Origin: a virus
IMG/VR virus record: IMGVR_UViG_3300012165_000001
Coordinates: 1-57,320 of that record
DNA length: 57,320 nucleotides
Direction: 5' to 3' (one strand)
Both the position numbers and the translations under genes were made by a program. Below, in pieces: positions 5,729-54,384 of this stretch. The notes under the pieces were generated by a model. It saw only the letters and a program-made list of their open reading frames with translations. It made no database searches and had not been told where the DNA came from. The first letter of the stretch is position 1. The number at the start of each line of letters is the position of its first letter.

Positions 5729-6325
5729 CTACTGACTACTGGATTTATCAGCAATGCACTTGATATTCCCGTCAATGCGCCGGTATATATCGCTCTGCAT
5801 GATAACACCCATGACCGTTTCAGAAAGCATGTTGCGGGTCTGCGTGTCAAAAATCTCTTTGACTTTGGAATTAACGTCTTTGCGAAGTGCATCAATATTA
5901 GTTTTGATATGCTTTTCAATTTCGCCATCAACGCAATGGTTAATCACGTAATCACTAAACTTGACGGATGAATAATCGTTGCGACCGTTGGGCGTTCTGA
6001 CTTTTATTTCTTCCTTTTCAACGATCTTGCGAATTTCCTCTTTCACAAATTCGCGGTAGGTATATATTTTGGCTTCTTCTTTCCAGCCACCGCCAACAGA
6101 GACTGTACTATTTTCGGCAATGTCGCAGAGAAGTTCTTCTACAAAATCAATCGCCTTTTCTCTGGATATGGCCTCAACCTCTGGCTTTAGCTGCTCGATA
6201 AAATCCCGCTTGATTTCGGCGCGGATATCGTCAAGCGTTTCGCCGCTTAATGCCTCCATGACTGCCGCCTTTATGCCATCCCGAAGTTCCTGCATGTCAT
6301 ATTCGATCTTCAATATATTAGCCAT
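5729..6325 (-). CDS. Hypothetical acidic protein
   Basis: ATG at 6325 with GGAGG 7 nt upstream; 198 aa. Confidence 0.55.
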   Translation of the reverse strand: MANILKIEYDMQELRDGIKAAVMEALSGETLDDIRAEIKRDFIEQLKPEVEAISREKAIDFVEELLCDIAENSTVSVGGGWKEEAKIYTYREFVKEEIRKIVEKEEIKVRTPNGRNDYSSVKFSDYVINHCVDGEIEKHIKTNIDALRKDVNSKVKEIFDTQTRNMLSETVMGVIMQSDIYRRIDGNIKCIADKSSSQ

Positions 6326-6327
6326 TT

Positions 6328-6555
6328 TCAATCCTCCACAATCGTTACTTTTGTTCTGATTTTGATTTTGATGATAGTATCGGTCGCGCCAATCTCTTCA
6401 AGGTATCGCTCATATGCGGATTCGCAATATGCGCCCTCGCAAAATACTTGACCATTGGGTGTTCCATAGCTTGCATGTTCGCCATAATCAGTATCGGCGC
6501 AATAACCGCATAGCTCCTCGGAATCTTGAAGCTGCTCCATTGTTTGAGGAATCAT
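6328..6555 (-). CDS. Hypothetical Cys-rich small protein
   Basis: 75 aa, GGAGGG RBS. Confidence 0.55.
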   Translation of the reverse strand: MIPQTMEQLQDSEELCGYCADTDYGEHASYGTPNGQVFCEGAYCESAYERYLEEIGATDTIIKIKIRTKVTIVED

Positions 6556-6556
6556 A

Positions 6557-6584
6557 TTGACAAACCCTCCAATTTCGCTATAAT
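6557..6584 (+). promoter_or_regulatory. Near-consensus sigma-70 promoter on the plus strand, opposite to the surrounding operon
   Basis: TTGACA (6557-6562), 16-nt spacer, TATAAT (6579-6584). Confidence 0.5.
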
Positions 6585-6604
6585 AAAGATGAATAGTTTC
6601 CTTT

Positions 6605-6640
6605 GCCGCCTTGGTGTTGCTTCACTGGGCGGCGTTTTTA
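6605..6640 (+). terminator. Intrinsic terminator on the plus strand, about 20 nt downstream of the 6557 promoter
   Basis: GCCGCC (6605-6610) pairs with GGCGGC (6628-6633), followed by GTTTTTA. Confidence 0.5.
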
Positions 6641-6826
6641 CGCATGCATGAGATATTCAACCGCATATCCACCGCCAAAGTATTTGCCCGTTTCGTGACA
6701 CTTCATTTTGACTACATCGGAACCGCATATGCTATATGGATCGCTCAAAACTTCAAATATGCAGCCCTTATACTTTTCTTCCTCTGCGCTGCCTACAATA
6801 ACTACCTGATCGCCTTTCTTAAGCAT
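6638..6826 (-). CDS. Hypothetical small protein
   Basis: 62-aa ORF in the operon. Confidence 0.45.
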   Translation of the reverse strand: MLKKGDQVVIVGSAEEEKYKGCIFEVLSDPYSICGSDVVKMKCHETGKYFGGGYAVEYLMHA

Positions 6827-6878
6827 GAATTTCTCATTTCAATCTGCCCTATCGTAATTCCATCGCGGTGGGCGGCGC

Positions 6879-6965
6879 TTATTTCTTCTTGTTTTGCCAA
6901 AGCATTATGATATTTACCACCAGAATCAAAATGCTGAAATTCCCTTCCTTAAACCAATCAAACAT
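6879..6965 (-). CDS. 28-aa membrane micro-ORF (MFDWFKEGNFSILILVVNIIMLWQNKKK), not in the ORF track
   Basis: Strong GGGAGGAAAT RBS before the ATG at 6965; hydrophobic core plus KKK tail. Confidence 0.4.
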   Translation of the reverse strand: MFDWFKEGNFSILILVVNIIMLWQNKKK

Positions 6966-11667: not shown

Positions 11668-11977
11668 GTTGTCCACTTCTTTCTTTTTATGTGCAATCGC
11701 GGTCGTTGCCCAACATCAGACTTTATTTACACTTTATCATTTTTGTATTGTAAATATTGTCATATATTGGAAATACTATGGATAAAATGTTGGAACCACC
11801 AGAGGAACATAAAGAGTGATATTTTCTAAGATTTCCCATAAGTAAATCATAAAACAAATGTTCTTAAAGATCAATCCGCAGAATAACCAAATCGCAAGTA
11901 ACATTTGCATGTTCTTTTTATGTGGCAATTGCATTTTTTGGAGAAGTTGAAAACCATTGACGTGGGGAGGGGTAGGC

Positions 11978-13084
11978 ATGGGGCGTAAAGCAAATGGCGA
12001 GGGAACCATAACGAAGTTACCCAGCGGCAAATACCGGCTGCGCACCGTAGACGAGATCGACGGCGTAACCGTCCGCAAATCTTTTACCGCATCGTCGCCT
12101 ACGGCCTGTAGGAAGGCCCACAAGGAATGGCTTGCCTCCGATAATAAGGTGCCCATAGAGCGCGTGAAGACGGTGGGGGAGTGGGCCGAACATTGGCTGG
12201 AAGTGTATCTAAAGCCGAACGTATCATACAGCACCCATAAAGATTACAGCATGTATGTGAATAATCACATTATCCCAGCCATCGGCAAACTCAAGCTGGC
12301 CGAAGTGAAGCCGGCCCATATCGCCAAACTATATGCAAATGCCCGGAATCGCTACGGAAAAGAGCTGTCTCGGCAAGCAAAAGGAAATATCATGATTTGT
12401 CTGAATGGGATTTTCAATACAGCGATAGACAACTATTTATGCCACAAGAACCCTGCCACCAACATTCAGTTGCCGGATAAAGCGCCCAGCCAGATTAAGG
12501 CGTTCAGCCGGACTCAAATTGCATACATCGTGGATTACCTGGATAAGCATGAGCACGGCCCGCTGATTGCATTTCTACTTTATACCGGCCTGCGTATCGG
12601 TGAATTTCTGTCCCTTATGTGGTCCGATATCGACACAGAAAACAAAACCCTCCACATTCACCGCACACTCACAAAAAGCGAGCATGGCGAGATTGTGAAG
12701 GATGCCACCAAGACGAAGCATGACCGGATTGTGACGTATGATGAAGCATTGGAAAGGCACCTTAATGTGTTGCCGCGTGTTGGGTTGTATGTTATTTGCA
12801 GGAAGGACGGAAATCATCACACGCACCGGACGTATGAGCGATTATATAAAATGTTCTTTGAGGATTTAAATGTCTACTTGGAAAGCGAGGGCGCGGATGC
12901 CATCCCTTATATGTCGCCCCACAAATGCCGTCACACCTTTGCCACCTATATGCTCCGGTCCGGTGCTGACATTCGAGCTATTCAAACACTGCTAGGACAC
13001 GCCACTTTAAAGACCACGGAAATCTATACCGAGGTGGATGTTGACGACCTAAAAAACAACGTCAAAAAACTCAACTTTAAATAA
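11978..13084 (+). CDS. int: Tyrosine integrase
   Basis: N-terminal [22 protein letters not shown]-terminal [39 protein letters not shown] carries the R..H-x-x-R..Y catalytic pattern. Confidence 0.92.
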
Positions 13085-16321: not shown

Positions 16322-16585
16322 ATGATGAAATCGATGAAGTCTAAAAATACCGATAACTACGGCAATCCAAGGCAGAACTATATTGATAAACTCGCCGCCA
16401 TGACGGATGCAGACCTACATACCGAAACGCGACAAAAGATTTGGCTATCAGCCTACGCCAACAACAATCCTCGCTCTGATTACCACTGGCAATGCGACGC
16501 TACATACGACGAATGGAAACGGCGCGGCAATCCTGACGGATATAAAAAGGCATATGATGAAGAATATGCCGCGAATTTTGGATGA
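16322..16585 (+). CDS. Hypothetical protein
   Basis: GGGAGGGG RBS; 87 aa. Confidence 0.5.
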   Translation: MMKSMKSKNTDNYGNPRQNYIDKLAAMTDADLHTETRQKIWLSAYANNNPRSDYHWQCDATYDEWKRRGNPDGYKKAYDEEYAANFG

Positions 16586-16610
16586 AACAAAATCCCTGGA
16601 ATGTGGATTA

Positions 16611-16639
16611 TTGACATTAGTGGGTAAATGGTGTATACT
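16611..16639 (+). promoter_or_regulatory. Promoter inside the element's left end
   Basis: TTGACA (16611-16616), 17 nt, TATACT (16634-16639). Confidence 0.55.
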
Positions 16640-16661
16640 ATATATTGAAAGGGTGGTTATT

Positions 16662-16790
16662 GTGAAATTCAATATAAGTATGCCGGACGAGTTTTATAAG
16701 AAACTCAAAGAAAAGGCCGCCGAAAAAAACATGAGCATAAGCGAATATATTAGATTTGCCTTGACGTTATTGTGGGAAAGGGGAATTTGA
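16662..16790 (+). CDS. 42-aa ribbon-helix-helix (CopG/Arc-like) protein translationally coupled to tnpB
   Basis: [42 protein letters not shown]. Its TGA shares one base with the tnpB ATG at 16790. Confidence 0.5.
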
Positions 16791-17908
16791 TGGAGAAATC
16801 GTACAAATTCCGCATATATCCAAATAAAGAACAAGAAATTCTTATTCAAAAAACATTTGGATGCTGTCGCTTTGTTTATAATTATTTTTTAGCGTTAAGG
16901 ATTGATATATATAAAAATCATGTCAGAGCAATTCGATTTTATGAAATGGATGCAATGCTTACTCAACTAAAAAATGAATTGCTATGGTTAAAAGAAGTTG
17001 ATTGTTTTCCATTAACGCAATCCTTAAAGATACTCGATCAATCATTTATAAATTTCTTCCGGAGGGTAAAAAGTGGAAACCCAAAGGTTGGATTCCCCAA
17101 ATTTAAGAGTAGGAAGCGTAGCAAAAAATCTTATAATACTAGGAACAAAAACAATAGTATTTCTCTTTTCGATTCAGGAATAAAGCTTCCAAAGATTGGA
17201 AAAATAAAGTGTGCAATTTCAAGACAAATTGAAGGCCGCATACTTTCCGCAACCATTTCTCAAAATCCAAGTGGCAAATACTTTGTGTCGATTTGTTGTA
17301 CTGATGTAGAAATTCAGCAGCACGAAAGCACCGGCACATCAATTGGTCTTGATATGGGTCTGAAATCGTTTTGCGTTTCCTCTGATGGGTTTTCTATTGA
17401 TAATCACAAATATCTCGCCAAGAGCCAAAAGAAGCTTGCCAAATTGCAGCGTCAGTTATCCCGAAAAACAAAGGGTAGCAGGAATAAAGATAAGGCAAGA
17501 ATCAAAATGGCGCGGTTGCATGAACATGTGGTTAACCAGCGAAATGATACACTACATAAACTATCAACCCAATTTGTCAAGGATTATGACATTATTTGCA
17601 TCGAAGATTTGCAAGTGAAAAATATGGTCAAGAATCATAAACTTGCAAGGTCTATCAGTGATGCATCATGGAGCGAATTTTCACGCCAACTTTCGTACAA
17701 ATGCGAATGGCAACATAAGGCACTTGTCAAGGTGGACAAATTCTTTCCATCAAGTCAGATTTGCTCATGTTGCGGCTATCAGAACAAAGGCACTAAAAAC
17801 TTGGCGGTACGGGAATGGCAATGTCCAGAATGCAATACCGTACATGACAGGGATGTCAATGCTGCACAAAATATATTGGCTGAGGGATTGCGTCTATTGA
17901 GCGCATAG
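16790..17908 (+). CDS. tnpB: RNA-guided endonuclease TnpB (OrfB_IS605 / OrfB_Zn_ribbon)
   Basis: [16 protein letters not shown]-terminus. RuvC residues in IGLDMGL, ICIEDL and [11 protein letters not shown]. Zinc finger CSCCG...CPECN. Confidence 0.9.
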
Positions 17909-40597: not shown

Positions 40598-41419
40598 TTA
40601 CGCGCTCTTATGGACATAGATTGCAGGCGCTTTATTTTGGAACACTCCGCAGTCGTGATAGATTCTACCCTCAATCAACCAGCCGTTAATACCAGGAGGA
40701 TTGTCGTGGTTTTTGTAATCGGCAATCTTCTGCGCCGCCCATGCCGCAATACGGTTTGTGAGCATAAATTCAACACCGGCGGGCATATAGCTCTTCGGCA
40801 CAAAGATAATCGGGATATTTTCAATCATGCCGACCTGCCCAGTAATAAGCATGTTCTGCGCCATATCGGACGCCTGAATAAATGCCGTGTCCAGGCGGAT
40901 GTAACGGTAGAATCCGGTGGAGATAAAGCCGAAAGTTCCAGCGGTGGGAGCCTTGTTGTCAAGCAGGGTTTCGACGCCCTTCAAAAAGCTCTCATATGCA
41001 TTGGCTTGCGTGATAGCGGCAGGTGTCGAAGTGTTGCCCGCATTAGCCGCAAGAATAGAAATCCTGTACTTGTCAACCTCGGGAATCACAACCTCGTCCA
41101 ACTGCCGACGAAGGGCGCGGCCGCTTTCTTTTACCATCATGGTATCAAGGTAATTCCGGCGGTCAATCGTGAATGTAAAGCTTCTGTCCTGCGTCAGGGT
41201 AAAGGATTGCACGGTGTCGCCCAGCTCATCAGGCGTACCATAACGGTTATCGCCCGCCATATTATAGTTGTTCATGGGTGCGGTGGGGATGCTGTAGACA
41301 TTAACGGTATTCACGCCGGTAAAGTCCAAATCCTGATTGAATGCGCTCTGCGTCACCGACGCTTTTGTAAACCTTTCGTCTACAATGCTTGCATATTTTT
41401 CTGCAAAGTTAATTGCCAT
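40598..41419 (-). CDS. Major capsid protein
   Basis: 273 aa immediately after the scaffold gene. The N-terminus MAINFAEKYASIVDERF is typical of this capsid family. Confidence 0.75.
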   Translation of the reverse strand: MAINFAEKYASIVDERFTKASVTQSAFNQDLDFTGVNTVNVYSIPTAPMNNYNMAGDNRYGTPDELGDTVQSFTLTQDRSFTFTIDRRNYLDTMMVKESGRALRRQLDEVVIPEVDKYRISILAANAGNTSTPAAITQANAYESFLKGVETLLDNKAPTAGTFGFISTGFYRYIRLDTAFIQASDMAQNMLITGQVGMIENIPIIFVPKSYMPAGVEFMLTNRIAAWAAQKIADYKNHDNPPGINGWLIEGRIYHDCGVFQNKAPAIYVHKSA

Positions 41420-41437
41420 AAATCATTCTCCTTTTTA

Positions 41438-42091
41438 TTAAGTTTCGTTGAATCCCGCCAAAAACGGGTCTGCTTCTTTGGTACTTGCGCCCTTGCTCCC
41501 ATCAGGCTGAAAGATTGATACGCCGACGGGGAGCTGCGCGGCGGGCGGCGCGTCTTGTGTTGCGGGCTGTGCCGGAATAGGAAAGTCAACTAAGGCAGCA
41601 TCCAGTGCCTTGCCAAAGTCGCCGTCCTCTGCCAAATAACTTTGAGCCAGCGCAATGTATTTGTCAGATTTATCTGCTGGGATTCCCTTGCCAACCGCCG
41701 AAAGCTGGCGCTGTAGTTTCAGGTTGTCGTTGGTCAGTCCGGTAATGGTGCCGTCCTTTTCGGCGGCAATCTGCTCCGGCGTCTGCTGTTTCGCTTTCCA
41801 TTCGGCTGTCATTCTGTTGATGGTTTCCGGGTCAAGGTTCTGCTGTTCCAGCATTGACCTAAAAACACCTGTCATTTTTCTTTCTGCGGCCTCACTGGCC
41901 TTTGTCTCGGCTTGACTGATAATGGAGTTAATGTCCACATTTACCGCCGTGGGCGTCGCTGCCGCCTGTACAGGCGTGGGTGCCGGTGCTGTCACCGTAG
42001 GGGTTGCCGGGGTAATGGATTCTGCCGGAGGCTGTGCCCCGCCATCTGAAAGCCTCATTGCCAAAGTTTTGATATTCATTTTCCTGCTCAT
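41438..42091 (-). CDS. Scaffolding protein
   Basis: Ala/Pro/Thr-rich N-terminus followed by helical Q/E/K-rich sequence; precedes the capsid gene. Confidence 0.65.
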   Translation of the reverse strand: MSRKMNIKTLAMRLSDGGAQPPAESITPATPTVTAPAPTPVQAAATPTAVNVDINSIISQAETKASEAAERKMTGVFRSMLEQQNLDPETINRMTAEWKAKQQTPEQIAAEKDGTITGLTNDNLKLQRQLSAVGKGIPADKSDKYIALAQSYLAEDGDFGKALDAALVDFPIPAQPATQDAPPAAQLPVGVSIFQPDGSKGASTKEADPFLAGFNET

Positions 42092-42145
42092 AACTTTCCT
42101 TTCCGCTCAAAGCGTCCGCTTAAGGCTCGTCAGCCGTGATTTTGA

Positions 42146-42188
42146 CAAAATAAAAAAGCCGCCCACTTCCAATAAGGAAATGAACGGC
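42146..42188 (-). terminator. Strong intrinsic terminator inside the late operon, after the radical-SAM cassette
   Basis: Minus strand: GCCGTTCATTTCC-ttatt-GGAAGTGGGCGGC (13 bp including G-U pairs), followed by TTTTTTATTTT. Confidence 0.7.
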
Positions 42189-42214
42189 TCTGACGGCTCT
42201 AGTTATTTGTTTTT

Positions 42215-42310
42215 TTATCCGCAATGCCCGCCTCCGGAATCGCCTCCGCAATGTCCGAATCCTGCCTGCTTGCTTCTCCGGTACATCCATTTGCAAAATT
42301 TAGTCCACAT
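42215..42310 (-). CDS. 31-codon Cys/Gly/His-rich micro-ORF, MWTKFCKWMYRRSKQAGFGHCGGDSGGGHCG (candidate precursor peptide), not in the ORF track
   Basis: ATG lies 3 nt after the radical-SAM stop. AAAGGAG RBS 7 nt upstream. Duplicated GHCG motif. Confidence 0.5.
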   Translation of the reverse strand: MWTKFCKWMYRRSKQAGFGHCGGDSGGGHCG

Positions 42311-42313
42311 AAT

Positions 42314-43198
42314 TTAACTCCTTTCTTTCATCCAACCGCCTTGTATTGTGCCGTCCTCATAGACAACGCCAAAATGACGATTATCAATAATTGGATTTCT
42401 TGTAACTGTTTTCGCAATCATCTTAATACCATCCGCAAATGAAGCTTTCAGGGATGATTCGCAAATAAAGCAACTTCGCTTTAGCAATACTGGCGTTTTG
42501 AGCTTCGCGCCCATTACGTTTTCAGTATCAATATATGTTTGACAGCCGCCGAAATATGGCGACGGCATTTTTATACCGAATATTTCTTCAAAAGATTTAT
42601 AATCTGCTGTTGAATGCTGAATTTCCGATAGCTTAAAGGAATTAAACCCAAATTTATCATAATGCAAAAGACATTTCGTTATCGTCTCGCGTGTGTCCAG
42701 CAAGCTTTTTACAATATTTAGATTTATCCTGATTTTTTCCTTCATCGGAATATTTGCATAAAATTCTTGGCGGTCATATTGAGATTTGTAGCCACGGATT
42801 TTATCGGCAATTTCCTCATTGTGGTGTTGCACAGACATATTGAAGCCATCTAGCAATCCCAAAACATCAGTAAATAGCGGGTTATCTTTGCAGGTTTTCG
42901 GAACGGATGATGTGCAATATACTTTCAATGCAGTTTCGCTTTTGATTGCCTTGATAAAATTCAGCATTTCTTCAATAAACAAGCAGGGTTCGCCGCCTAA
43001 AATCAAAACATCATCAAATCCGGTTTGTTTCTCAATTATGGCATTTGCCATTGCCCGCCAGTTTGGTTTTCCTCTGTTCACAGTTATGGAATCTCTGTCA
43101 ACACAAAATGCGCATTTATTATCACAAAACTTAGTGAAATGCACATCATATGAATTGTAAATGCCATCACAGCAATTACGGTTGAATGATTGTATCAT
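42314..43198 (-). CDS. Radical SAM enzyme of unassigned subfamily
   Basis: FCDNKCAFCVD CxxxCxxC motif, VLILGGEPCLF, and C-terminal Cys in GGC and CFIC. Confidence 0.75.
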   Translation of the reverse strand: MIQSFNRNCCDGIYNSYDVHFTKFCDNKCAFCVDRDSITVNRGKPNWRAMANAIIEKQTGFDDVLILGGEPCLFIEEMLNFIKAIKSETALKVYCTSSVPKTCKDNPLFTDVLGLLDGFNMSVQHHNEEIADKIRGYKSQYDRQEFYANIPMKEKIRINLNIVKSLLDTRETITKCLLHYDKFGFNSFKLSEIQHSTADYKSFEEIFGIKMPSPYFGGCQTYIDTENVMGAKLKTPVLLKRSCFICESSLKASFADGIKMIAKTVTRNPIIDNRHFGVVYEDGTIQGGWMKERS

Positions 43199-43421
43199 CT
43201 TCTCGGCTCTCCTTTTTCGGCTCTAATGGTGTTTCAATATGGATTGTCTTTGCGTCTGGCCATAGTTTACGGGGGTCAGTTTCGATTTTGATTTTTTCTT
43301 TACAGCCTCGACACAACACATAGACATTGCCCTGCTCGTCACGCTCCGCCACAATCTTTGCGCGGTCGTGGCAATTACATCTTATCTGTTCGATAATATC
43401 ACCACCTTTTTTGAAGTCCAT
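43176..43421 (-). CDS. Small zinc-binding protein
   Basis: CNCH...CRGC pairs; overlaps the radical-SAM start by 23 nt. Confidence 0.5.
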   Translation of the reverse strand: MDFKKGGDIIEQIRCNCHDRAKIVAERDEQGNVYVLCRGCKEKIKIETDPRKLWPDAKTIHIETPLEPKKESREDDTIIQP

Positions 43422-43433
43422 CAGGACGCAGGG

Positions 43434-43760
43434 TTATATTGCTTCAATTTCTTTGAACGCCGCCAACATCTTAGGAAATTGCATAGCAATCCAATGTACA
43501 CAAAATTCATTATCTAAAACCGTATTCAATGCGCCGGATTCAGTGATGAATGCATGTACAAGCTCATGCCTCTTAATGAGTTTTTTCCTTTCCGTCTTTT
43601 CATTTTCGTTGGCATGCTTATCATTCGCAAACGGTTCTTTTTCCACCAAGATATATTTATCGTAATTGCTACAAAAGCCATCTGCATTTTCAAGTATTCC
43701 GTTTTCCTTTTGCGTAGTTTCCATGATTTCATATTCTGCGCCAAGAATAGTGACTTTCAT
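43434..43760 (-). CDS. Small HExxH metallopeptidase-like protein
   Basis: KRHELVHAFITESG contains HELVH; GGAGGA RBS. Confidence 0.5.
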   Translation of the reverse strand: MKVTILGAEYEIMETTQKENGILENADGFCSNYDKYILVEKEPFANDKHANENEKTERKKLIKRHELVHAFITESGALNTVLDNEFCVHWIAMQFPKMLAAFKEIEAI

Positions 43761-43805
43761 TTATATCCTCCACAATGTATTCACGCATAGCGCCGCGCCG
43801 CGAGA

Positions 43806-44228
43806 TTAGGTTGCGCCCTTACTCTGCAAATAAGCCTTGAAATCTCTGTTGAAGCGCTCCGGAAGTTGCCGTTGGATACGGTCAATAGGAATCGTCATGA
43901 TGAAATATCCATCCCGCCAAGAGCCGTTGACATTTCTTGCTCCGAACTCAATAAACGAGCTGTAATCCTGGGGATTGCCCAGAGTAACCTCAAGATCATT
44001 GCCCACTCTCCTAACATCACTGACATACCACGATAATAGCATGGCTCTAGTGTCAACCGTTTTGCCCGTTGCCGCATAAACTTCGTTGTGACGTTCTATT
44101 ATTTTGTCAAGTGCTCGGTTGGCCTCTCTCAAGAAAAATTTCTCAATCCAACTTGGGAATTCTTCAAAGGCTTTAATATTGTTTTTTAGAAATTGTTCTA
44201 ACTGTGAAAAATCGGCGTTTTTGCTCAA
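43806..44228 (-). CDS. Head-associated protein (possibly HK97 gp10-like)
   Basis: Coupled (ATGA) to the gp7-like gene; 140 aa. Confidence 0.4.
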   Translation of the reverse strand: MSKNADFSQLEQFLKNNIKAFEEFPSWIEKFFLREANRALDKIIERHNEVYAATGKTVDTRAMLLSWYVSDVRRVGNDLEVTLGNPQDYSSFIEFGARNVNGSWRDGYFIMTIPIDRIQRQLPERFNRDFKAYLQSKGAT

Positions 44229-45232
44229 GGTACGTACCTCACTTTTCCATTATCCAACGGGGTCAGCCCTTTTCTCCATCGACTAAAGCTTAAGTCTGCC
44301 GGGATTTCGATTACCTTGCCGTTTTCGTCCGTTGCAAGTCTAACCGCTCTTGGATATAGGGCATCAATTTCATCTTTTGGCAGATACGGCCTTGTACCCG
44401 TACGGCAGTTTGGGTGAAATGGGTTTGCGGTAACTCCTGGTTGATATTCGCTTACTTTGAATATTTTGCCGTGCATCTCTTCGCAAATCTCTGATGTTTT
44501 GTGGTCTAAAACTGCATCAATCTTGTATTCTTCGATTCCAGCCGCTATGTAGCCTTTAAGCCTACCGTCACCAGCTATCTTGTTGAACTCCGTGCGGGCT
44601 AACCGGACGCCGTTGTATTCGCTTGTCTGCATAGCGTCGGATATGTTTTTCCCGATAATTCTGGGGCTTTGCCCAAGCGCCATACCTTGCGGAATTATCC
44701 TTTCCAGATTTAAGGTAAGCCGGTCTTTGTTCGCCCAAATCCTGTCTGAATAACTCTCCCCCAGCCATTTAGTCGAAACTGCGCTCTCTATCATTTTTGT
44801 ATTTAAGGATGAAAAACTGCTTGCCATACCAAACGCTTGATTGAAATCAAACATTGTGCGTAGATAGCTTTCCTCGTAGACGGTTCCAAGCCCTATCCTG
44901 AATGCGTCCTGCTCCTGCGCATACAATTTCTCAATCTGAAATTGCACGTCCGCTTGTAATGCTTCCAAGCGGCTCACGGCTGATTTTAGGGATAGTTGCC
45001 GGTGTAGCTTTTGGCGATAGGCGGGGTCGAATGCGTAGCCGGTAGCCTTGATTGCCTCGTAATATTCCTGCGTCTGTTCAAGATAGGATTTCAGCTCGGA
45101 TTTATTCAGGGCTTTCCGGGCATCTTCGAGGGATACGCCGACATCTCTTGCGTAGCGGCCATAGAACACTTCCAGTTCACACTGTATGGCCTTTTGCGCT
45201 TCTCTGTAGAGTTTTGAGAGATCGGCGTTCAT
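44225..45232 (-). CDS. Head morphogenesis protein, SPP1 gp7 family
   Basis: C-terminal region with TANPFHPNCRTGTRPY, typical of the family. Confidence 0.75.
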   Translation of the reverse strand: MNADLSKLYREAQKAIQCELEVFYGRYARDVGVSLEDARKALNKSELKSYLEQTQEYYEAIKATGYAFDPAYRQKLHRQLSLKSAVSRLEALQADVQFQIEKLYAQEQDAFRIGLGTVYEESYLRTMFDFNQAFGMASSFSSLNTKMIESAVSTKWLGESYSDRIWANKDRLTLNLERIIPQGMALGQSPRIIGKNISDAMQTSEYNGVRLARTEFNKIAGDGRLKGYIAAGIEEYKIDAVLDHKTSEICEEMHGKIFKVSEYQPGVTANPFHPNCRTGTRPYLPKDEIDALYPRAVRLATDENGKVIEIPADLSFSRWRKGLTPLDNGKVRYVP

Positions 45233-45400: not shown

Positions 45401-46186
45401 TTAATCATCCATTCCCAAAACCCATTGCAATGCTTTCCGTTGCACTATCGTATATGGGTCATTTCCACACAATTCCTTTATTCGCCTTTCAATCTCCCGG
45501 CGCGTCCTCATTTTCGGCGCTGCCTTATTCTCTGGAGAAGCAGCGGCGCTTTTCATTGTATGAACCGTGGGCTTTTCGCCGCGCTGTTTTATATCCTCAT
45601 AGCGTCTGACCTGTTCTTCGCGAGAATGACCGGACATTTGCAAGGCGGCTGTCGCGGAAACCTCACCATTCCCAACGGCCTCTTTTATTTGGGTCGGTAA
45701 TTCATCCACTGCTAACCACTGATCTACAGCCTGCCGGGTAACGCCAAAGACAACGGCGATCTGCTGAGGCGCATAACCCATATTAAGTAACTTGCGGGCT
45801 TTTTCGCCCTTGTTGATAACACTATCTTCGCGCCGAATTTCATTTTCTGATATTAGAACGCCGAACAAATCAACGTCAGAACCGCCGCGGACTATTGCCG
45901 GTATCAGTAGAGGCGGCTTGCCCTCTGCCGCAAAGCGCCGGTTTACCTCCAACGCGGCCTTTGTGCGTCCGCGTCCTGCGACAACCTCTATTGCGTCTCC
46001 GTTCTTGCGAACAATGATAGGTTCCAATACCCCGTGCATGGCGATATTGGCGATCATGCTTTCGCTTGGTTCATTCTCGACACGTGGGTCATACAGTGGA
46101 TGATTCTTGTCTGTCACCAATGTTAGGCGCTCCGGCTCTAACTTGAAAATGTCGCCCCTCTTTGCATCAATAGCACTCTTTCCCAT
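45401..46186 (-). CDS. ParB/Spo0J-like N-terminal domain protein with an HTH (start at 46186)
   Basis: HGVLEPIIVRKNGDAIEVVAGRGRTKAA (ParB box) and GYAPQQIAVVFGVTRQAVDQW HTH; AGGAGG RBS. Confidence 0.75.
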   Translation of the reverse strand: MGKSAIDAKRGDIFKLEPERLTLVTDKNHPLYDPRVENEPSESMIANIAMHGVLEPIIVRKNGDAIEVVAGRGRTKAALEVNRRFAAEGKPPLLIPAIVRGGSDVDLFGVLISENEIRREDSVINKGEKARKLLNMGYAPQQIAVVFGVTRQAVDQWLAVDELPTQIKEAVGNGEVSATAALQMSGHSREEQVRRYEDIKQRGEKPTVHTMKSAAASPENKAAPKMRTRREIERRIKELCGNDPYTIVQRKALQWVLGMDD

Positions 46187-46212
46187 GATAAACCTCCTAC
46201 CCATATATTTGA

Positions 46213-46286
46213 GCATGAAAAGGGAGAGGCGGGTTAAACCTCTCCGTCGGCTGTACAACCGTTTCATGCTGTAAAAGCCTATTGGC
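46213..46286 (-). repeat. Structured intergenic repeat, copy b
   Basis: Plus strand: GCATGAAAAGGGAGAGGCGGGTTAAACCTCTCCGTCGGCTGTACAACCGTTTCATGCTGTAAAAGCCTATTGGC. Confidence 0.8.
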
Positions 46287-47817
46287 TATTTACCGTTTCT
46301 TCCCGCTCCCGCGCCAACCGCTCGTTTTCTTCTCTCAGCCTTGCAAGTTCGCGTTCTGTGTTCATGTCGGATAGGGCTGCTTCTTCCTCTTGCTTCCGGC
46401 GCTGTTGTTCGATCTCGTGGGATTCGACGGCGGGATTATAATTGTCAATAGTTTCCTGGCTTATTCCGGTAGCCATAAGCTTGACGGTATCTTCGATATA
46501 CTGCGATTCATTGATAAGCATATCTCTGTTGAGAGTAGGGATTAAATTATATTTCGCCCATTGCTCGGACGTTCCAATGCCGCGAAAATTAAACCAAATA
46601 TCGACAAAGTATTTAAGCTGCTGTGTCATAAACACCTCAAATTCAGGTTCAAGCCCGTCCGTATAGGTGTCTAACCCCTGATAGCGGAATTCAAGCGCAA
46701 CGCCGGATGTATCGCTTGTTGTATCGCTATCTGGTGACATAATCATCTGTGCGGCTTTTCGTATGTTCTTTTCAAGGATTTTAAGCGCTGTTTCCATTGC
46801 GACAATTTCAGGACTGGCTTGCACATAATACGCTTTACCGCCCGTCCCGATTGCTACAATGCGGGAATTTTGCATAATGGCGCGTTGCTTTATCAGATCG
46901 CCCAATTCCGGCGAATACCCTTCAAGGGCGAGAACGGGGTCAAGCGCGTCCGCTATTGCGTCAACCATTTTGCTCTGGAGCGCATCGTAGCTGTCTACAA
47001 GCTGCCGAATTGGATTGAGTATAGGAAGTTCTTCTTCGTTTCCTTTGAAGAAAATAAACGGCACCCTGCTCCATTCAAGCGCCCCGAATACAGGATGTTC
47101 CATGTGACCTGTCGGCTGCGGATAATCGGGGTCTGGCTCTAGTGTGCCGTTCCCCTTATCAATATATCGTTCAACAATTTCCTTATCCCAATATTCGACC
47201 TTGGTGATTTCCTCGCGGTTGCCGTCCGCGTCGTACTGGATAACCTTGTAGTCTCGAACGATTGCGTCAAGGATAGTATGCTCCTTATCGGCCCATGCTG
47301 GATATATCTGCTCCGAATCCACATGCTCAATGATTAAATCGCCAGCTTGGTCGATTTTAACAAATGCCCAACCAATACCCTTGTTGATTGCACCTTGCTT
47401 TCCGATACGCTTTATAGTCTTCCTGCGGGCAGGGGAGAGATATTTTGACCATTCATCAAGATATATTGCGGCCTGCGGGTCTTCCGTACCGTCCGGTAAA
47501 GGGCTTTCCACGCTTATAGAAAATGGTTTACCCATTGCATAATTGCTTTTTTCGGTGACGCTTTCACGAACGAACGCAGACGGAATCTTAGCGTTTGACA
47601 GTGTAGAGTTCCCGCCATATTCGGGCAAGTCGCGGCGCTTTTTCAATATGGTTGTGTTGCGGACCATGAAGTATTCTTCAGCATCAAGCATATCCTTGAT
47701 AATATGCGCCCTATCGCCTGTACGCCATTCTTTAAGCGTAATGCGGGTAAAGTCCTTATTGCTACGCCCTCTGCCCATAAATTCAATTTTAGTGCCGATC
47801 AATTCGGTTTCGGTCAA
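46279..47817 (-). CDS. Portal protein (SPP1 gp6-like); TTG start
   Basis: 512 aa. AAAGGAG lies 7 nt before the TTG. Acidic coiled C-terminus. Positioned between the terminase region and the head genes. Confidence 0.85.
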   Translation of the reverse strand: MTETELIGTKIEFMGRGRSNKDFTRITLKEWRTGDRAHIIKDMLDAEEYFMVRNTTILKKRRDLPEYGGNSTLSNAKIPSAFVRESVTEKSNYAMGKPFSISVESPLPDGTEDPQAAIYLDEWSKYLSPARRKTIKRIGKQGAINKGIGWAFVKIDQAGDLIIEHVDSEQIYPAWADKEHTILDAIVRDYKVIQYDADGNREEITKVEYWDKEIVERYIDKGNGTLEPDPDYPQPTGHMEHPVFGALEWSRVPFIFFKGNEEELPILNPIRQLVDSYDALQSKMVDAIADALDPVLALEGYSPELGDLIKQRAIMQNSRIVAIGTGGKAYYVQASPEIVAMETALKILEKNIRKAAQMIMSPDSDTTSDTSGVALEFRYQGLDTYTDGLEPEFEVFMTQQLKYFVDIWFNFRGIGTSEQWAKYNLIPTLNRDMLINESQYIEDTVKLMATGISQETIDNYNPAVESHEIEQQRRKQEEEAALSDMNTERELARLREENERLAREREETVNSQ

Positions 47818-52068: not shown

Positions 52069-52638
52069 CTATGCGCCTTTTGCCTCCTGCTTCATTTCGG
52101 CTGAAATAGCCGCCAATAAAACATCTGTTGGAATTGGGATATTCTCTGTGTTATAGTAATGGTTATTCGCAAGCTTGGTGTCATACTGCTTCAACCATTG
52201 CCGTCCATTATGTTTCCATGCCATTTGCAAAAGCAATGTAGGCAGGAGATAGATTTTACCGGATCCCAATACTGCATAAACTATGTAATCGCATTGAGAA
52301 TAGAACAGCCAGCCTAATTTCTTCCGCTCTTTATTCTTCCATAACTCAAGCAATATATCGCCATAGTCTTTGCGCCGTTTCTTCTCATCTACAGTTACAG
52401 TCCGACCATCTGGGAAGTGTACAACTTTATCAACTCCCCTTAGCTGCAATTCTGGATCTGCCTCATAAGAAATAGTTTCAATTCGTTCGGCTGTAGGAAA
52501 AGCCTTTAAGTAAAAAGCGTTTAATTGCTCATCTTCTCCCGCTTCAAACGAGTATTGGAGATCGGCGTGAAAGTCATTATATTTGATTCCCCCACACCTC
52601 CCATTTATCACTATGTTTTTGGCGGGCAAACATTTCAA
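52069..52638 (-). CDS. PD-(D/E)xK-like nuclease-fold candidate; start uncertain
   Basis: GVDKVVHFPDGRTVTVDEKKRR fits D...(D/E)xK. Overlaps the methylase 3' end. Confidence 0.4.
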   Translation of the reverse strand: MKCLPAKNIVINGRCGGIKYNDFHADLQYSFEAGEDEQLNAFYLKAFPTAERIETISYEADPELQLRGVDKVVHFPDGRTVTVDEKKRRKDYGDILLELWKNKERKKLGWLFYSQCDYIVYAVLGSGKIYLLPTLLLQMAWKHNGRQWLKQYDTKLANNHYYNTENIPIPTDVLLAAISAEMKQEAKGA

Positions 52639-53755
52639 GATAGGTTTCGTCCGGAAACATTCTTTCGATCATGGAATAATAATAATCTGGCTTTTGGCTG
52701 TGCCTCCCTCTCGCTTCCTTGTAAACAGAAGAAAAGCGATTTTCGGGCAATGGTGCAGCATGTTTACCCTTAACGCCCAAAAGCAACAATTCATGCTGTC
52801 CTCTAAACCAATATCCCATACCGTTCTTTTCTTTATCCCACGAATGGCAAGTGCGATATAAAAAGCCCCATGCCTCCATAACCTCAAGAGCCTCTGTCAG
52901 TTTTGGAGCTGTAGCCCATAAAAAAAGCACCGCATTGTCTTCACACGGCACTTGGATATTTTTTATGTCCTCCAATGTCATAGTTGGGTATTGATTTTCA
53001 ATGGCGCGGCTTTCGGTTTCGGAAAATTCATAACGCCATGGAGGATCTGCGTAGATTATATCGTATTTTCCGGTGGTTTGTTTCAGAGGCGCAATTTTAA
53101 TTTCTTCGCGTCTGATAAGCTGCGCAGCCGTTTTTATGGTAGCAGCTTGCCCGGTGGTTAACTTATCAACAATAGCCTTTTGCTGCTGCGGCTTCATTCT
53201 GGCAAGAGTAAGGGCATCTGTTTTTGGCATATCGTTTTTTATAACAGCCGCTTTTGCCTCCGGTGTAAGCTTTTTCGCAATCTGTATTTCCTGCTCCACC
53301 GTCCTGCGGGACACGCCTATTTTTTCGGCGGTATCCTCTGCAAAGGTTGGCGAAATAATTTCGCTGACCTCTTTAAATTGGTTTCCACGAAATGCGCCCC
53401 CTTTTGAAGTTGGCTTGGTCTCTGGATGCAACTCCTCATAAATTTCCTTACGCCGTGAAAATTGTTCTCCGCGAATAGTAAAATGTAATTCATTTCGTAT
53501 CAGGTTTTCGTCTATCTCGGCAAGTTCAGCATGAAGCCCGGAAAGATCTGTTGTGGTGGCCTCTATCTCTGCGCGTCCCAACAACTTAAACGCTTCTATT
53601 CTGTGTGCCCCGGCAATCAAGAATCTATCAATATCCAGTGTAATAGGATTAATAAGCCCGATTTCTTTTATGCTGTCTGCAAGATCCTTTACCTTCGATA
53701 TGTCGATAGCACGGCGATTGCTTCTTGTTTGAATGTCTGCGATTTTAACCAACAT
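52577..53755 (-). CDS. ParB-like N-terminal domain fused to an MT-A70-type N6-adenine DNA methyltransferase
   Basis: GLINPITLDIDRFLIAGAHRIEA (ParB box) and IIYADPPWRYEF (DPPW catalytic motif). Confidence 0.8.
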   Translation of the reverse strand: MLVKIADIQTRSNRRAIDISKVKDLADSIKEIGLINPITLDIDRFLIAGAHRIEAFKLLGRAEIEATTTDLSGLHAELAEIDENLIRNELHFTIRGEQFSRRKEIYEELHPETKPTSKGGAFRGNQFKEVSEIISPTFAEDTAEKIGVSRRTVEQEIQIAKKLTPEAKAAVIKNDMPKTDALTLARMKPQQQKAIVDKLTTGQAATIKTAAQLIRREEIKIAPLKQTTGKYDIIYADPPWRYEFSETESRAIENQYPTMTLEDIKNIQVPCEDNAVLFLWATAPKLTEALEVMEAWGFLYRTCHSWDKEKNGMGYWFRGQHELLLLGVKGKHAAPLPENRFSSVYKEARGRHSQKPDYYYSMIERMFPDETYLEMFARQKHSDKWEVWGNQI

Positions 53756-53854
53756 GATATTACCGCCTTTCCGTAAGCCTTAAAAGTTAATCCGGGGAAG
53801 GCGGATAAGGCTTTCCGTTTTTCGAGTGCGCTACTCTATCCCCGAATTTTGGGA

Positions 53855-54310: not shown

Positions 54311-54384
54311 TGGAGCGGATAGACGGAATTGAACCGACATAGCCAGTTTGGAAGACTGGAATTTTGCCGTTAAATTATATCCGC
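54311..54384 (-). tRNA. tRNA-Gly (anticodon UCC), 74 nt with encoded CCA
   Basis: Hand fold: GCGGATA/TATCCGC acceptor, ATTT/AAAT D-stem, CCAGT-CTTCCAA-ACTGG anticodon arm, GTCGG-TTCAATT-CCGTC T-arm (one T-T mismatch), U73, CCA. Confidence 0.75.

Follow-up and report, generated by a model that had tools for sequence, protein, structure and literature searches.

A candidate two-gene module of a radical SAM enzyme and a Cys-motif peptide in phages of anaerobes

The 57,320-nt stretch of viral DNA deposited as IMG/VR record IMGVR_UViG_3300012165_000001, hereafter referred to as the window and to whose positions all coordinates refer, encodes among its head genes a 294-aa radical S-adenosylmethionine (SAM) enzyme and, immediately downstream, a peptide of 31 aa specified by a small open reading frame (micro-ORF). 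A preliminary description of this region had placed here four ORFs, encoding an HExxH protein, a Zn-ribbon protein, the enzyme and the peptide, and all four were found to be present with the motifs, ribosome-binding site and coordinates it gave (Table 1). It had also interpreted them as a cassette of the type that makes peptides that are ribosomally synthesized and modified after translation (RiPPs). The analysis reported here upheld the enzyme and the micro-ORF as a conserved, coupled pair and did away with the four-gene unit, since the HExxH and Zn-ribbon genes are not co-inherited with them.

The enzyme-peptide pair in the window and in other phages

The ATG of the micro-ORF lies 3 nt past the TAA of the enzyme gene, and it is preceded, at a spacing of 7 nt, by an AAAGGAG Shine-Dalgarno (SD) sequence. 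The conserved Lys-Gly-Trp codons for the C-terminus of the enzyme supply the SD sequence (AAAGGATGG) in most relatives, and this location within the final codons gives enzyme and peptide a built-in translational coupling. The exact sequence of the window peptide was absent from a collection of ~15 billion predicted proteins, indicating that this micro-ORF has never been called and confirming that it had been rightly presented as unannotated. Residues 1-18 of the peptide (MWTKFCKWMYRRSKQAGF) are basic, amphipathic and leader-like, and precede a core (GHCGGDSGGGHCG) with two Gly-His-Cys motifs.

The limits of the pair were outlined through comparison with two related loci that lack it. Locus L085 is syntenic with the window and presents 93% nt identity over the Zn-ribbon gene up to ~43196, at the enzyme ATG. 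Past this point ~265 nt of unrelated sequence take the place of the enzyme and peptide genes, and identity resumes at 98% over a transcription terminator (42198-42144), followed by 90% over the end of the scaffold gene and the capsid gene. In L087, the terminator is present at 88% identity without the enzyme, and the Zn-ribbon gene is also found. The left junction hence maps to the enzyme ATG (43196-43198) and the right junction to 1-15 nt past the micro-ORF stop (42199-42214), and the insertion took the place of the last ~7 codons of the Zn-ribbon gene. Because L085 and L087 share the Zn-ribbon gene and the terminator in the absence of the enzyme, these alignments show that the enzyme gene and the micro-ORF are a discrete inserted segment of ~1 kb, flanked by a Zn-ribbon gene and a terminator that are both resident. 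The terminator itself had been taken as the end of the cassette and given a 13-bp stem. It is real, with a stem of 16 pairs, and the 96-nt stretch around it (42130-42225) has a folding energy of -31.3 kcal/mol (z = -4.4 against shuffled sequences), but its presence in L085 without the module identifies it as a feature of the phage backbone that precedes the scaffold gene.

Loci encoding homologues of the enzyme were gathered through exact-protein look-ups and from IMG/VR, species-representative genomes and GenBank phages. Enzyme homologues were present at 79 loci, including those of Lak megaphages, with identities from 100% down to ~31%, and 76 of these loci were testable in that the enzyme gene was complete and followed by 120 nt or more of sequence. 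A strict test, calling for an ORF that starts between -60 and +150 nt from the enzyme stop and whose tail contains two or more [GSNA][HGRS]C motifs, was passed at 69 of the 76 loci, and the other seven presented variant, fused or displaced versions of the peptide. Four of them (L072-L074 and L061) carry variant motifs (..SHCGGPTIGGSTHCK, ..ACEGGGSICGN, ..NPCCH and ..YGCGSSSAYNYRCGSGSSPGGRC), L030 presents an in-frame enzyme-peptide fusion, and in L051 and L059 a homologous Cys-tailed protein is encoded slightly further downstream. The read-through from enzyme into peptide in L030 (~6001-6942) may reflect a frameshift or a sequencing error. As a control, the same motif, which is a loose one, was found in 26 of ~12,500 other short ORFs from these loci, and none of these resembles the peptide family. 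The conservation of the micro-ORF is thus far beyond chance. Its absence or frame disruption in relatives, which the preliminary description had named as evidence against its proposal, was not observed: the micro-ORF is kept in frame and is not lost.

The loci include 56 from IMG/VR, on contigs of 4-448 kb, and 15 Lak megaphage records. Only 11 enzyme matches were found among 185,579 species-representative genomes, all of them on contigs of metagenome-assembled genomes labeled as Clostridia, Lachnospiraceae, Spirochaetaceae, Deltaproteobacteria or Geobacter. The enzyme family is hence essentially viral and almost restricted to phage contigs of anaerobes, a setting that fits an oxygen-sensitive enzyme.

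The 32 distinct short peptides collected share a basic amphipathic N-terminus followed by GHC-x(2-13)-GHC-x. Their leaders span 17-18 residues in 28 of 32 cases, have a net charge of +2 to +5, and conform to the consensus M-[YFW]-T-K-[LIF]-L-R-K-I-V, with a helical hydrophobic moment of 0.61 (0.29 for shuffled sequences). The cores, of 9-20 residues, consist of 36% Gly, 16% His and 15% Cys; Gly precedes His-Cys in 63 of the 64 motifs, the two Cys are separated by 3-14 residues, and 1-3 residues follow the last Cys (0-3 across the whole family). Differences in peptide gene length are all frame-preserving, and among close pairs the differing codons comprise 32 synonymous and 21 non-synonymous changes, both of which speak for genuine coding sequences. 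No match to the peptide was found in NCBIfam, PHROGs or PADLOC.

The partner changes in size and composition with distance. At 50% enzyme identity some peptides present four motifs in 61-62 aa, and at 31-42% identity, Lak megaphages included, the partner is a protein of 51-166 aa that has a related helix at its N-terminus (..ITKKIASRAAR..), contains 2-8 Cys, most of which lie in GCG-type repeats, and always has Cys as its last residue. These longer Cys-tailed partners yielded no match in PHROGs, the only library scanned for them. The His is lost in the distant partners of the GGC clade. An even-number rule for the Cys, as for paired metal sites, was ruled out by partners with counts of 3, 5 and 7. 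In L023 (6864-7059), a single enzyme gene is followed by two paralogous peptide genes in tandem, with a separate AGGAGG for each, whose products end in ..NGHCSSTGHCS and ..NGHCVPDKPDKPVGHCY. In addition, Cys/His tails occur naturally fused to the enzyme, as in P0132, ending in ..SHDCHSGRGSRTGHC, and in P0251, ending in ..GCHAKLPVSRGCH, where the order of the motif in the tail (..FGCHAKLPVSRGCH) is Cys-His.

In other phages, the pair was found next to an integrase gene (L080), a PemK toxin gene (L007), DUF4160/DUF2442 genes (L005) or a dCMP deaminase gene (L078), and beside baseplate genes in the L044 clade and in L019. All-against-all clustering of neighboring ORFs did not reveal any third partner (peptidase, exporter, RiPP recognition element (RRE) or immunity gene) recurring across clades, and detected only clade-specific synteny, involving PnuC-like, NadR-like and baseplate genes in a clade at ~40% enzyme identity. 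The members of this clade (L044-L055 and L064, from IMG/VR) encode partners of 89-157 aa with GCG repeats, preceded by the PnuC-like and NadR-like genes, named by sequence reading, and followed by gp25-like and baseplate-J-like genes. Comparison of gene content across the collection shows the pair to be co-inherited across at least 70 phage loci, in unrelated neighborhoods. The preliminary description had remarked that it knew of no account of this arrangement between portal and scaffold genes. With the pair located elsewhere near integrase, toxin-antitoxin-like, dCMP deaminase and baseplate genes, the gene orders compared indicate that the neighborhood in the window is incidental to the pair.

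The settings described above bear on the possibility that the enzyme modifies a virion protein, or that its Cys-tailed product sits in the particle as a head or baseplate cross-linking or metal-binding element. No structural gene co-varies with the pair, L085 has the same scaffold and capsid without it, and in several phages it adjoins genes for integration, a toxin or nucleotide metabolism instead. A role in the virion would be in line with the location of the module among structural genes in the window, with the ~40% identity clade, in which the pair lies directly upstream of the gp25-like and baseplate-J-like genes, and with distant partners being proteins rather than peptides, but on this evidence we deem it very unlikely.

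A distinct family of radical SAM enzymes

The enzyme matched the Pfam families Fer4_12 (33.8 bits; cut-off 22) and Radical_SAM (29.4 bits; cut-off 29.5), and a Radical_SAM match is on record for most of its homologues. The residues of the SAM-cluster motif (C25-x3-C29-x2-C32) and G68, G69 and E70 of a GGEP motif at 68-71 are invariant in alignments of 30-37 homologues, and C25, C29 and C32 are kept in all 64 locus-derived enzyme sequences. Exactly three further Cys (C10, C219 and C243) occur universally, in every clade; most members of the family also have C103 and C176, and conservation of C9, C72 and C246 is limited to the clade associated with GHC peptides. In the alignment of 64 members, enzyme and peptide class were seen to co-vary, with GHC-motif peptides accompanying C9, C72 and C246, and with these residues replaced in nearly all members that have His-free Gly-Gly-Cys-repeat partners (position 72 being Met or Leu and position 246 Val or Lys); L055 departs in part from this replacement.

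A word-indexed search returned 856 enzyme homologues at E<=1e-3, and in a profile search of 1.84 billion representatives 92 clusters (50% identity level) reached E<=1e-30, while 254 reached E<=1e-10. The Joint Genome Institute (JGI) call of the window enzyme (P0281) comprises only 245 aa and, given that the full ORF of 294 aa is backed by homologues, appears to be N-terminally truncated. Another family member, P0177 (695 aa), has at its N-terminus a second radical SAM domain with a distant likeness to RlmN/Cfr (61 bits; cut-off 290), which may derive from a gene fusion or be an artifact of gene calling.

A scan with all curated NCBIfam models identified none near its cut-off. The scores obtained include those of NrdG2 (29.9 bits; cut-off 131), NrdG (25.3; 126), PflA (24; 232), prokaryotic viperin NF038283 (28.2; 180), TIGR04278 (17.9; 450), HxsC (25.2; 267.9), PqqE (20.5; 381) and TIGR04053 (22; 395). 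The curated peptide-maturase models reach 16-25 bits where their cut-offs are 262-425, and QueE models are absent from the matches at E<=0.1. PHROGs contained no family for the enzyme (best match E = 1.6e-5), and the PADLOC model for pVip (33.7 bits, E 6e-9) indicated a distant relation only. The enzyme thus misses every curated cut-off and belongs to no defined family, and we take it to represent a previously undescribed radical SAM family.

The same data address the notion of a housekeeping radical SAM gene of the NrdG, PflA or QueE type accompanied by a chance small ORF, for which the preliminary description had proposed profile searches as a check. The best curated names are indeed NrdG2, viperin and PflA, and the sources label homologues as 'organic radical activating enzyme', yet such models reach 24-30 bits against cut-offs of 126-232 and QueE is not matched at all. 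Furthermore, the window contains no NrdD- or PFL-sized ORF, its largest ORFs being a 604-aa weak tape-measure match and those for the portal, fibre and sheath, and the small ORF is conserved across ~70 loci. Peptide conservation and model scores refute this explanation, to which we assign next to no probability.

The AlphaFold2 (AF2) model of the enzyme, obtained with a 37-sequence input, has a predicted local distance difference test (pLDDT) value of 90 and a predicted template modeling score (pTM) of 0.88. Foldseek comparison with the PDB returned 95 matches at E<=1e-3, of which the best 50 are all radical SAM enzymes. The best matches are viperin, MoaA, CteB, PFL activase, DesII and SkfB, with template modeling (TM) scores of 0.5-0.63 and identities of 11-19%, and MoaA is the best full-length match. 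No close relative was found in the BFVD library of viral structures (TM <= 0.61, identity <= 19%). The nearest solved proteins by sequence profile are viperins (E = 3e-9), which align with enzyme residues 15-209 only. The enzyme thus belongs to the radical SAM superfamily, with a predicted core fold closest to viperin and MoaA.

The SPASM seven-Cys motif (CX2CX5CX3C) was not seen in the alignment of the enzyme family, and no RRE/PqqD-like domain was detected in the enzyme, for which Pfam and NCBIfam matched nothing past the radical SAM core, or among recurrent neighbors. The model places a strand, a short helix and a further strand between C219 and C243, with the further strand ending immediately ahead of C243. 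Twitch and SPASM domains hold their auxiliary-cluster ligands in a comparable strand-helix-strand layout. From this arrangement we infer that C10, C219 and C243 could be the ligands of a putative three-Cys auxiliary [4Fe-4S] cluster.

The enzyme resembles viperin, including prokaryotic pVip, and MoaA in sequence profile and in fold (TM 0.56-0.63), and in a cluster-binding segment, HFTxxCxxKCxFC, similar to the motif aligned in viperin-like PDB chains; MoaA, in addition, has a three-Cys C-terminal auxiliary cluster. In contrast, its scores fall far below the family cut-offs, its C-terminal third does not align with viperin, and both viperin and MoaA act on nucleotides and lack an obligate peptide partner. 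This kinship is the starting point for an alternative in which the peptide would be a metal- or Fe-S-binding partner (electron donor, cluster carrier or regulatory tail) of a viperin/MoaA-like enzyme that acts on a nucleotide or another small-molecule substrate, making, for instance, a modified nucleotide in infection. Fusions of the enzyme to Cys tails fit a subunit, and Cys/His-rich tails are typical metal ligands. A defined metal site, however, would not be expected to come in 2-8 motif copies with odd numbers of Cys, to lose its His in a distant clade or to vary its Cys spacer between 3 and 14 residues. The tandem paralogous peptide genes in L023, the presence of a conserved leader-like helix separate from a variable core, and viperin model scores of only 28-34 bits also argue against such a partner, which we regard as unlikely.

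Neighboring genes and other features of the window

The features of the region, from the portal gene to the major-capsid position, are compiled in Table 1. In the window the Zn-ribbon and enzyme genes overlap by 23 nt, and the two genes preceding the enzyme are co-directional with it. This adjacency underlies the proposal of a four-gene RiPP cassette in which the HExxH protein would act as leader peptidase, the Zn-ribbon protein as an accessory and the hairpin as the end of the unit. In the other enzyme loci searched, tblastn (E<=0.01) did not detect either protein beside the enzyme, except in the near-identical sister contig L001. Homologues of the HExxH protein are encoded without the enzyme or the Zn-ribbon protein in L082/L083 (95% identity), L084 (86%) and L081 (78%), directly upstream of a different scaffold gene in L082/L083; the Zn-ribbon protein, too, has homologues in loci lacking the enzyme, namely L085/L086 (92%) and L087/L088 (72%), in the latter as the N-terminal part of a 137-aa protein. 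H65, E66 and H69 of the HExxH protein are invariant in six sequences, a point in favor of the cassette, but its AF2 model (pLDDT 75) yielded no PDB fold match below E = 5.9, and hence no match to any solved peptidase. The terminator, as described above, is also present without the module. Searches of the fetched loci by tblastn with the HExxH, Zn-ribbon, gp10-like, Mu-F, scaffold and capsid proteins contradicted the four-gene cassette, and a possible peptidase nature of the HExxH protein no longer bears on the module; we accordingly hold this arrangement to be highly improbable.

Table 1. Features of the window from the portal gene to the major-capsid position.
Feature	Position	Strand	Remarks
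Portal	46279-47817		Flank of module region
ParB-like gene	45401-46267	-	Wedged between portal and Mu-F head genes
Mu-F/SPP1 gp7-like minor head protein	44225-45232		
HK97 gp10-like protein	43806-44228		
HExxH protein, 108 aa	43434-43760	-	Contains HELVH; phrog_1233; neighbor outside module
Zn-ribbon protein (CxC...CxxC), 81 aa	43176-43421	-	CNC...CRGC; neighbor outside module
Radical SAM enzyme, 294 aa	42314-43198	-	FCDNKCAFC, later GGC and CFIC
Shine-Dalgarno AAAGGAG for micro-ORF	42318-42324	-	Within last codons of enzyme gene, read directly
Micro-ORF, 31 aa	42215-42310	-	MWTKFCKWMYRRSKQAGFGHCGGDSGGGHCG
Intrinsic terminator, 16-pair stem	42155-42191	-	Then TTTTTTATTTT, T-run to ~42145; phage backbone
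Inserted two-gene module, ~1.0 kb	42200-43198	-	blastn and junction alignment against L085, L087
Scaffold-like protein	41438-42091		PHROG 'head scaffolding protein', E 3e-7; no Pfam match
273-aa ORF at major-capsid position	40598-41419		L085 homologue has weak Phage_capsid_4 match

A trace of the Zn-ribbon gene beside the pair was identified in L079 (enzyme 83% identical), where the first 10 residues of a homologue lie past the peptide. Although this could be counted in favor of the four-gene arrangement, it makes the interval between the gp10-like and scaffold genes look like a variable cargo region in this group of phages. The Zn-ribbon protein presented weak Pfam matches only, the CSL zinc finger among them (E 0.008, 16 bits; cut-off 29). 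In eukaryotes and archaea, members of the CSL zinc finger family (Dph3/Kti11) act as electron donors to the radical SAM enzyme Dph2. Since the Zn-ribbon gene is not co-inherited with the enzyme, the match is probably due to chance.

The sister contig L001 (1-4494) aligns with positions 41209-45019 of the window at 99.9% identity from the HExxH gene through the capsid gene, and at only 80% in the gp10-like gene and 73% in the Mu-F gene, with a sharp mosaic boundary near 43824. No near-identical DNA was found for the window among GenBank phages. The genes for a tail sheath, a weak tape-measure-like protein, a tail fibre, a large terminase, an integrase, a DnaB helicase and a TnpB-type protein indicate that the window derives from a temperate phage with a contractile tail, or from a prophage.

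Other features were noted along the window. The integrase gene lies at 11957-13084 (+), and a TnpB/IS605 OrfB-type gene at 16407-17908 (+), with OrfB_IS605 and Cas12f1-like TNB domains, follows a 127-aa ORF. Beside the terminase region, the window also encodes an MT-A70 methyltransferase to which another ParB N-terminal domain is fused (52577-53755, -). Near one end of the window lie an int-alpA RNA (53778-53846, -; Rfam RF02996, 53.8 bits) and a tRNA-Gly gene with anticodon UCC (54311-54384, -). GGA accounts for 5 of the 8 Gly codons of the micro-ORF, and the tail-fibre gene encodes a Gly-rich domain; a tie of either to this tRNA is unproven.

A proposed reading of the module and its relation to known systems

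The reading that we favor, and consider rather probable, is that the pair constitutes an autonomous two-gene, RiPP-like phage module in which the enzyme modifies Cys motifs of a translationally coupled, precursor-like peptide. The 32 short peptides present the features by which RiPP loci are recognized, namely a short precursor, divided into a conserved leader and a variable core, whose gene adjoins that of the modifying enzyme. The varying number of motifs across clades, which we count as precursor-like behavior, the tandem peptide genes of L023 and the fusions lend support to a precursor-type relationship, and the natural fusions of enzyme and tail are also a sign of physical association between the two.

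In the mechanism that we propose, which is borrowed from sacti- and ranthisynthases, the basic amphipathic N-terminal ~17 residues of the peptide would act as a leader docking on the enzyme. A SAM-cleaving [4Fe-4S] cluster would be bound by C25, C29 and C32, and a second, three-Cys auxiliary cluster, on C10, C219 and C243, would have one open iron site. The Gly-(His/Gly)-Cys motifs would be presented one by one, with the Cys thiolate binding the open iron, as in thioether-forming maturases, for which direct binding of the substrate Cys or Sec to auxiliary clusters has been published (PMC10177961). The 5'-deoxyadenosyl radical would then take a hydrogen from a nearby carbon, leading to one C-S (thioether) bond per motif. 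The window peptide would hence acquire two such bonds, with an expected mass change of -4 Da. Thioether formation is our leading guess for the chemistry, made by analogy, and other Cys-centered reactions, such as formylglycine or dehydroalanine formation, epimerization and methylation, are possible.

The module would be expressed along with the co-directional, presumably late, structural genes, as suggested by its location just upstream of the backbone terminator and by the lack of a convincing promoter of its own, a consensus scan having returned 7 promoter-like sites where 5.8 were expected. No dedicated leader peptidase or exporter is co-inherited with the pair, as judged from the HExxH gene and from the neighbors analyzed across clades. 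Release of the product at lysis would explain why exporter and protease are missing, and the product could function as a competition peptide, a signal, a metal binder or an anti-defence factor.

Several observations weigh against this reading. Thioether formation is proposed by analogy to enzymes from which the phage enzyme departs in having neither the SPASM motif nor a detectable RRE/PqqD-like domain, and the peptide-maturase models score far below their cut-offs. Its nearest relatives in sequence are viperins, enzymes that act on nucleotides. Fusions of enzyme and tail would be equally expected of a subunit or of a cofactor-carrying tail. The loss of His in the distant GGC clade implies that His would not be essential to a chemistry shared by the family, and expression and late timing are deduced from gene order and consensus scans only.

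Among known systems, the closest in layout are those for sacti- and ranthipeptides (CteB/SCIFF, PapB/PapA and SkfB/SkfA). As in these, a radical SAM gene adjoins that of a short Cys peptide with a leader-like N-terminus and repeated Cys motifs in its core, extra conserved Cys are available for an auxiliary cluster, and the enzyme model matches CteB (5why) and SkfB (6efn) in Foldseek comparisons. Unlike them, the phage enzyme has only 294 aa and lacks both a SPASM motif and an RRE, and the module lacks a protease or exporter and is phage-borne. The Gly-His-Cys twin motif, which matched no family in the three libraries searched with the peptide, also sets it apart.

In PqqA/PqqE and MftA/MftC, similarly, the C-terminal residues of a tiny peptide are targeted by an adjacent radical SAM enzyme. 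Those enzymes, however, carry SPASM and RRE domains and need further processing genes, and the phage enzyme scores far below the PqqE cut-off, as indicated above. PqqE and MftC nonetheless provide a precedent for radical SAM enzymes acting on peptide C-termini, and one could envisage the phage peptide as a scaffold from whose C-terminus a small diffusible product or cofactor of the PQQ (pyrroloquinoline quinone), mycofactocin or pearlin type is cut. The motifs do lie at the extreme C-terminus, and the last residue is always Cys in the distant clades, but repeated internal motifs suggest several equivalent sites instead of one excised unit, and no peptidase or extra tailoring enzyme was found among recurrent neighbors. 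We consequently view an excised product as quite unlikely.

The HXS anti-phage system, in which HxsA, bearing His-Xaa-Ser repeats, is matured by the radical SAM proteins HxsB and HxsC, constitutes a conceptual parallel from the bacterial side. It shares with the phage module short repeated His-containing motifs, maturation by radical SAM enzymes and a context of phage-bacterium conflict (PMC13128918), and HxsC appears among the weak matches of the phage enzyme, well short of its cut-off. HXS differs in being bacterial and defensive, in comprising four genes and in having an effector with a peptidoglycan-binding domain (PMC13128918); the motif of the phage peptide, moreover, is G-H-C, with no H-x-S repeats.

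Full-text searches returned no description, in the literature covered, of the GHC-motif module or of a phage-encoded peptide modified by a radical SAM enzyme. A paper on thymidine hypermodification in phages that mentions radical SAM enzymes was set aside, as it concerns an unrelated DNA-modifying enzyme. The recurrence of the pair in dozens of unrelated phages suggests an undescribed family of phage-made modified peptides. We further put forward, as a tentative proposal that we think somewhat doubtful in its full extent, that these phages possess a phage-restricted class of ribosomal peptides, or of peptide-derived products, made by a minimal viperin/MoaA-like radical SAM enzyme through an undescribed reaction on Gly-(His/Gly)-Cys motifs. 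The class would be encoded by a ~1-kb unit mobile among phages of anaerobes, from temperate phages of 40-60 kb to Lak megaphages of 550 kb, and would act in phage-host or phage-phage conflict, for instance as a lysis-released peptide, an anti-defence factor or a metal-binding agent.

With 27-38 codons, the gene for the peptide partner is of a kind that annotation pipelines usually skip. An enzyme without SPASM and RRE domains may also reveal new peptide chemistry, and genome-mining tools that rely on those domains would miss it. As a compact and widespread two-gene module, the pair offers a directly testable case of what may be a phage-made peptide modified by a radical SAM enzyme. As accessory cargo found both in small temperate phages and in the Lak megaphages that infect gut anaerobes, it points to a selective need that these phages share.

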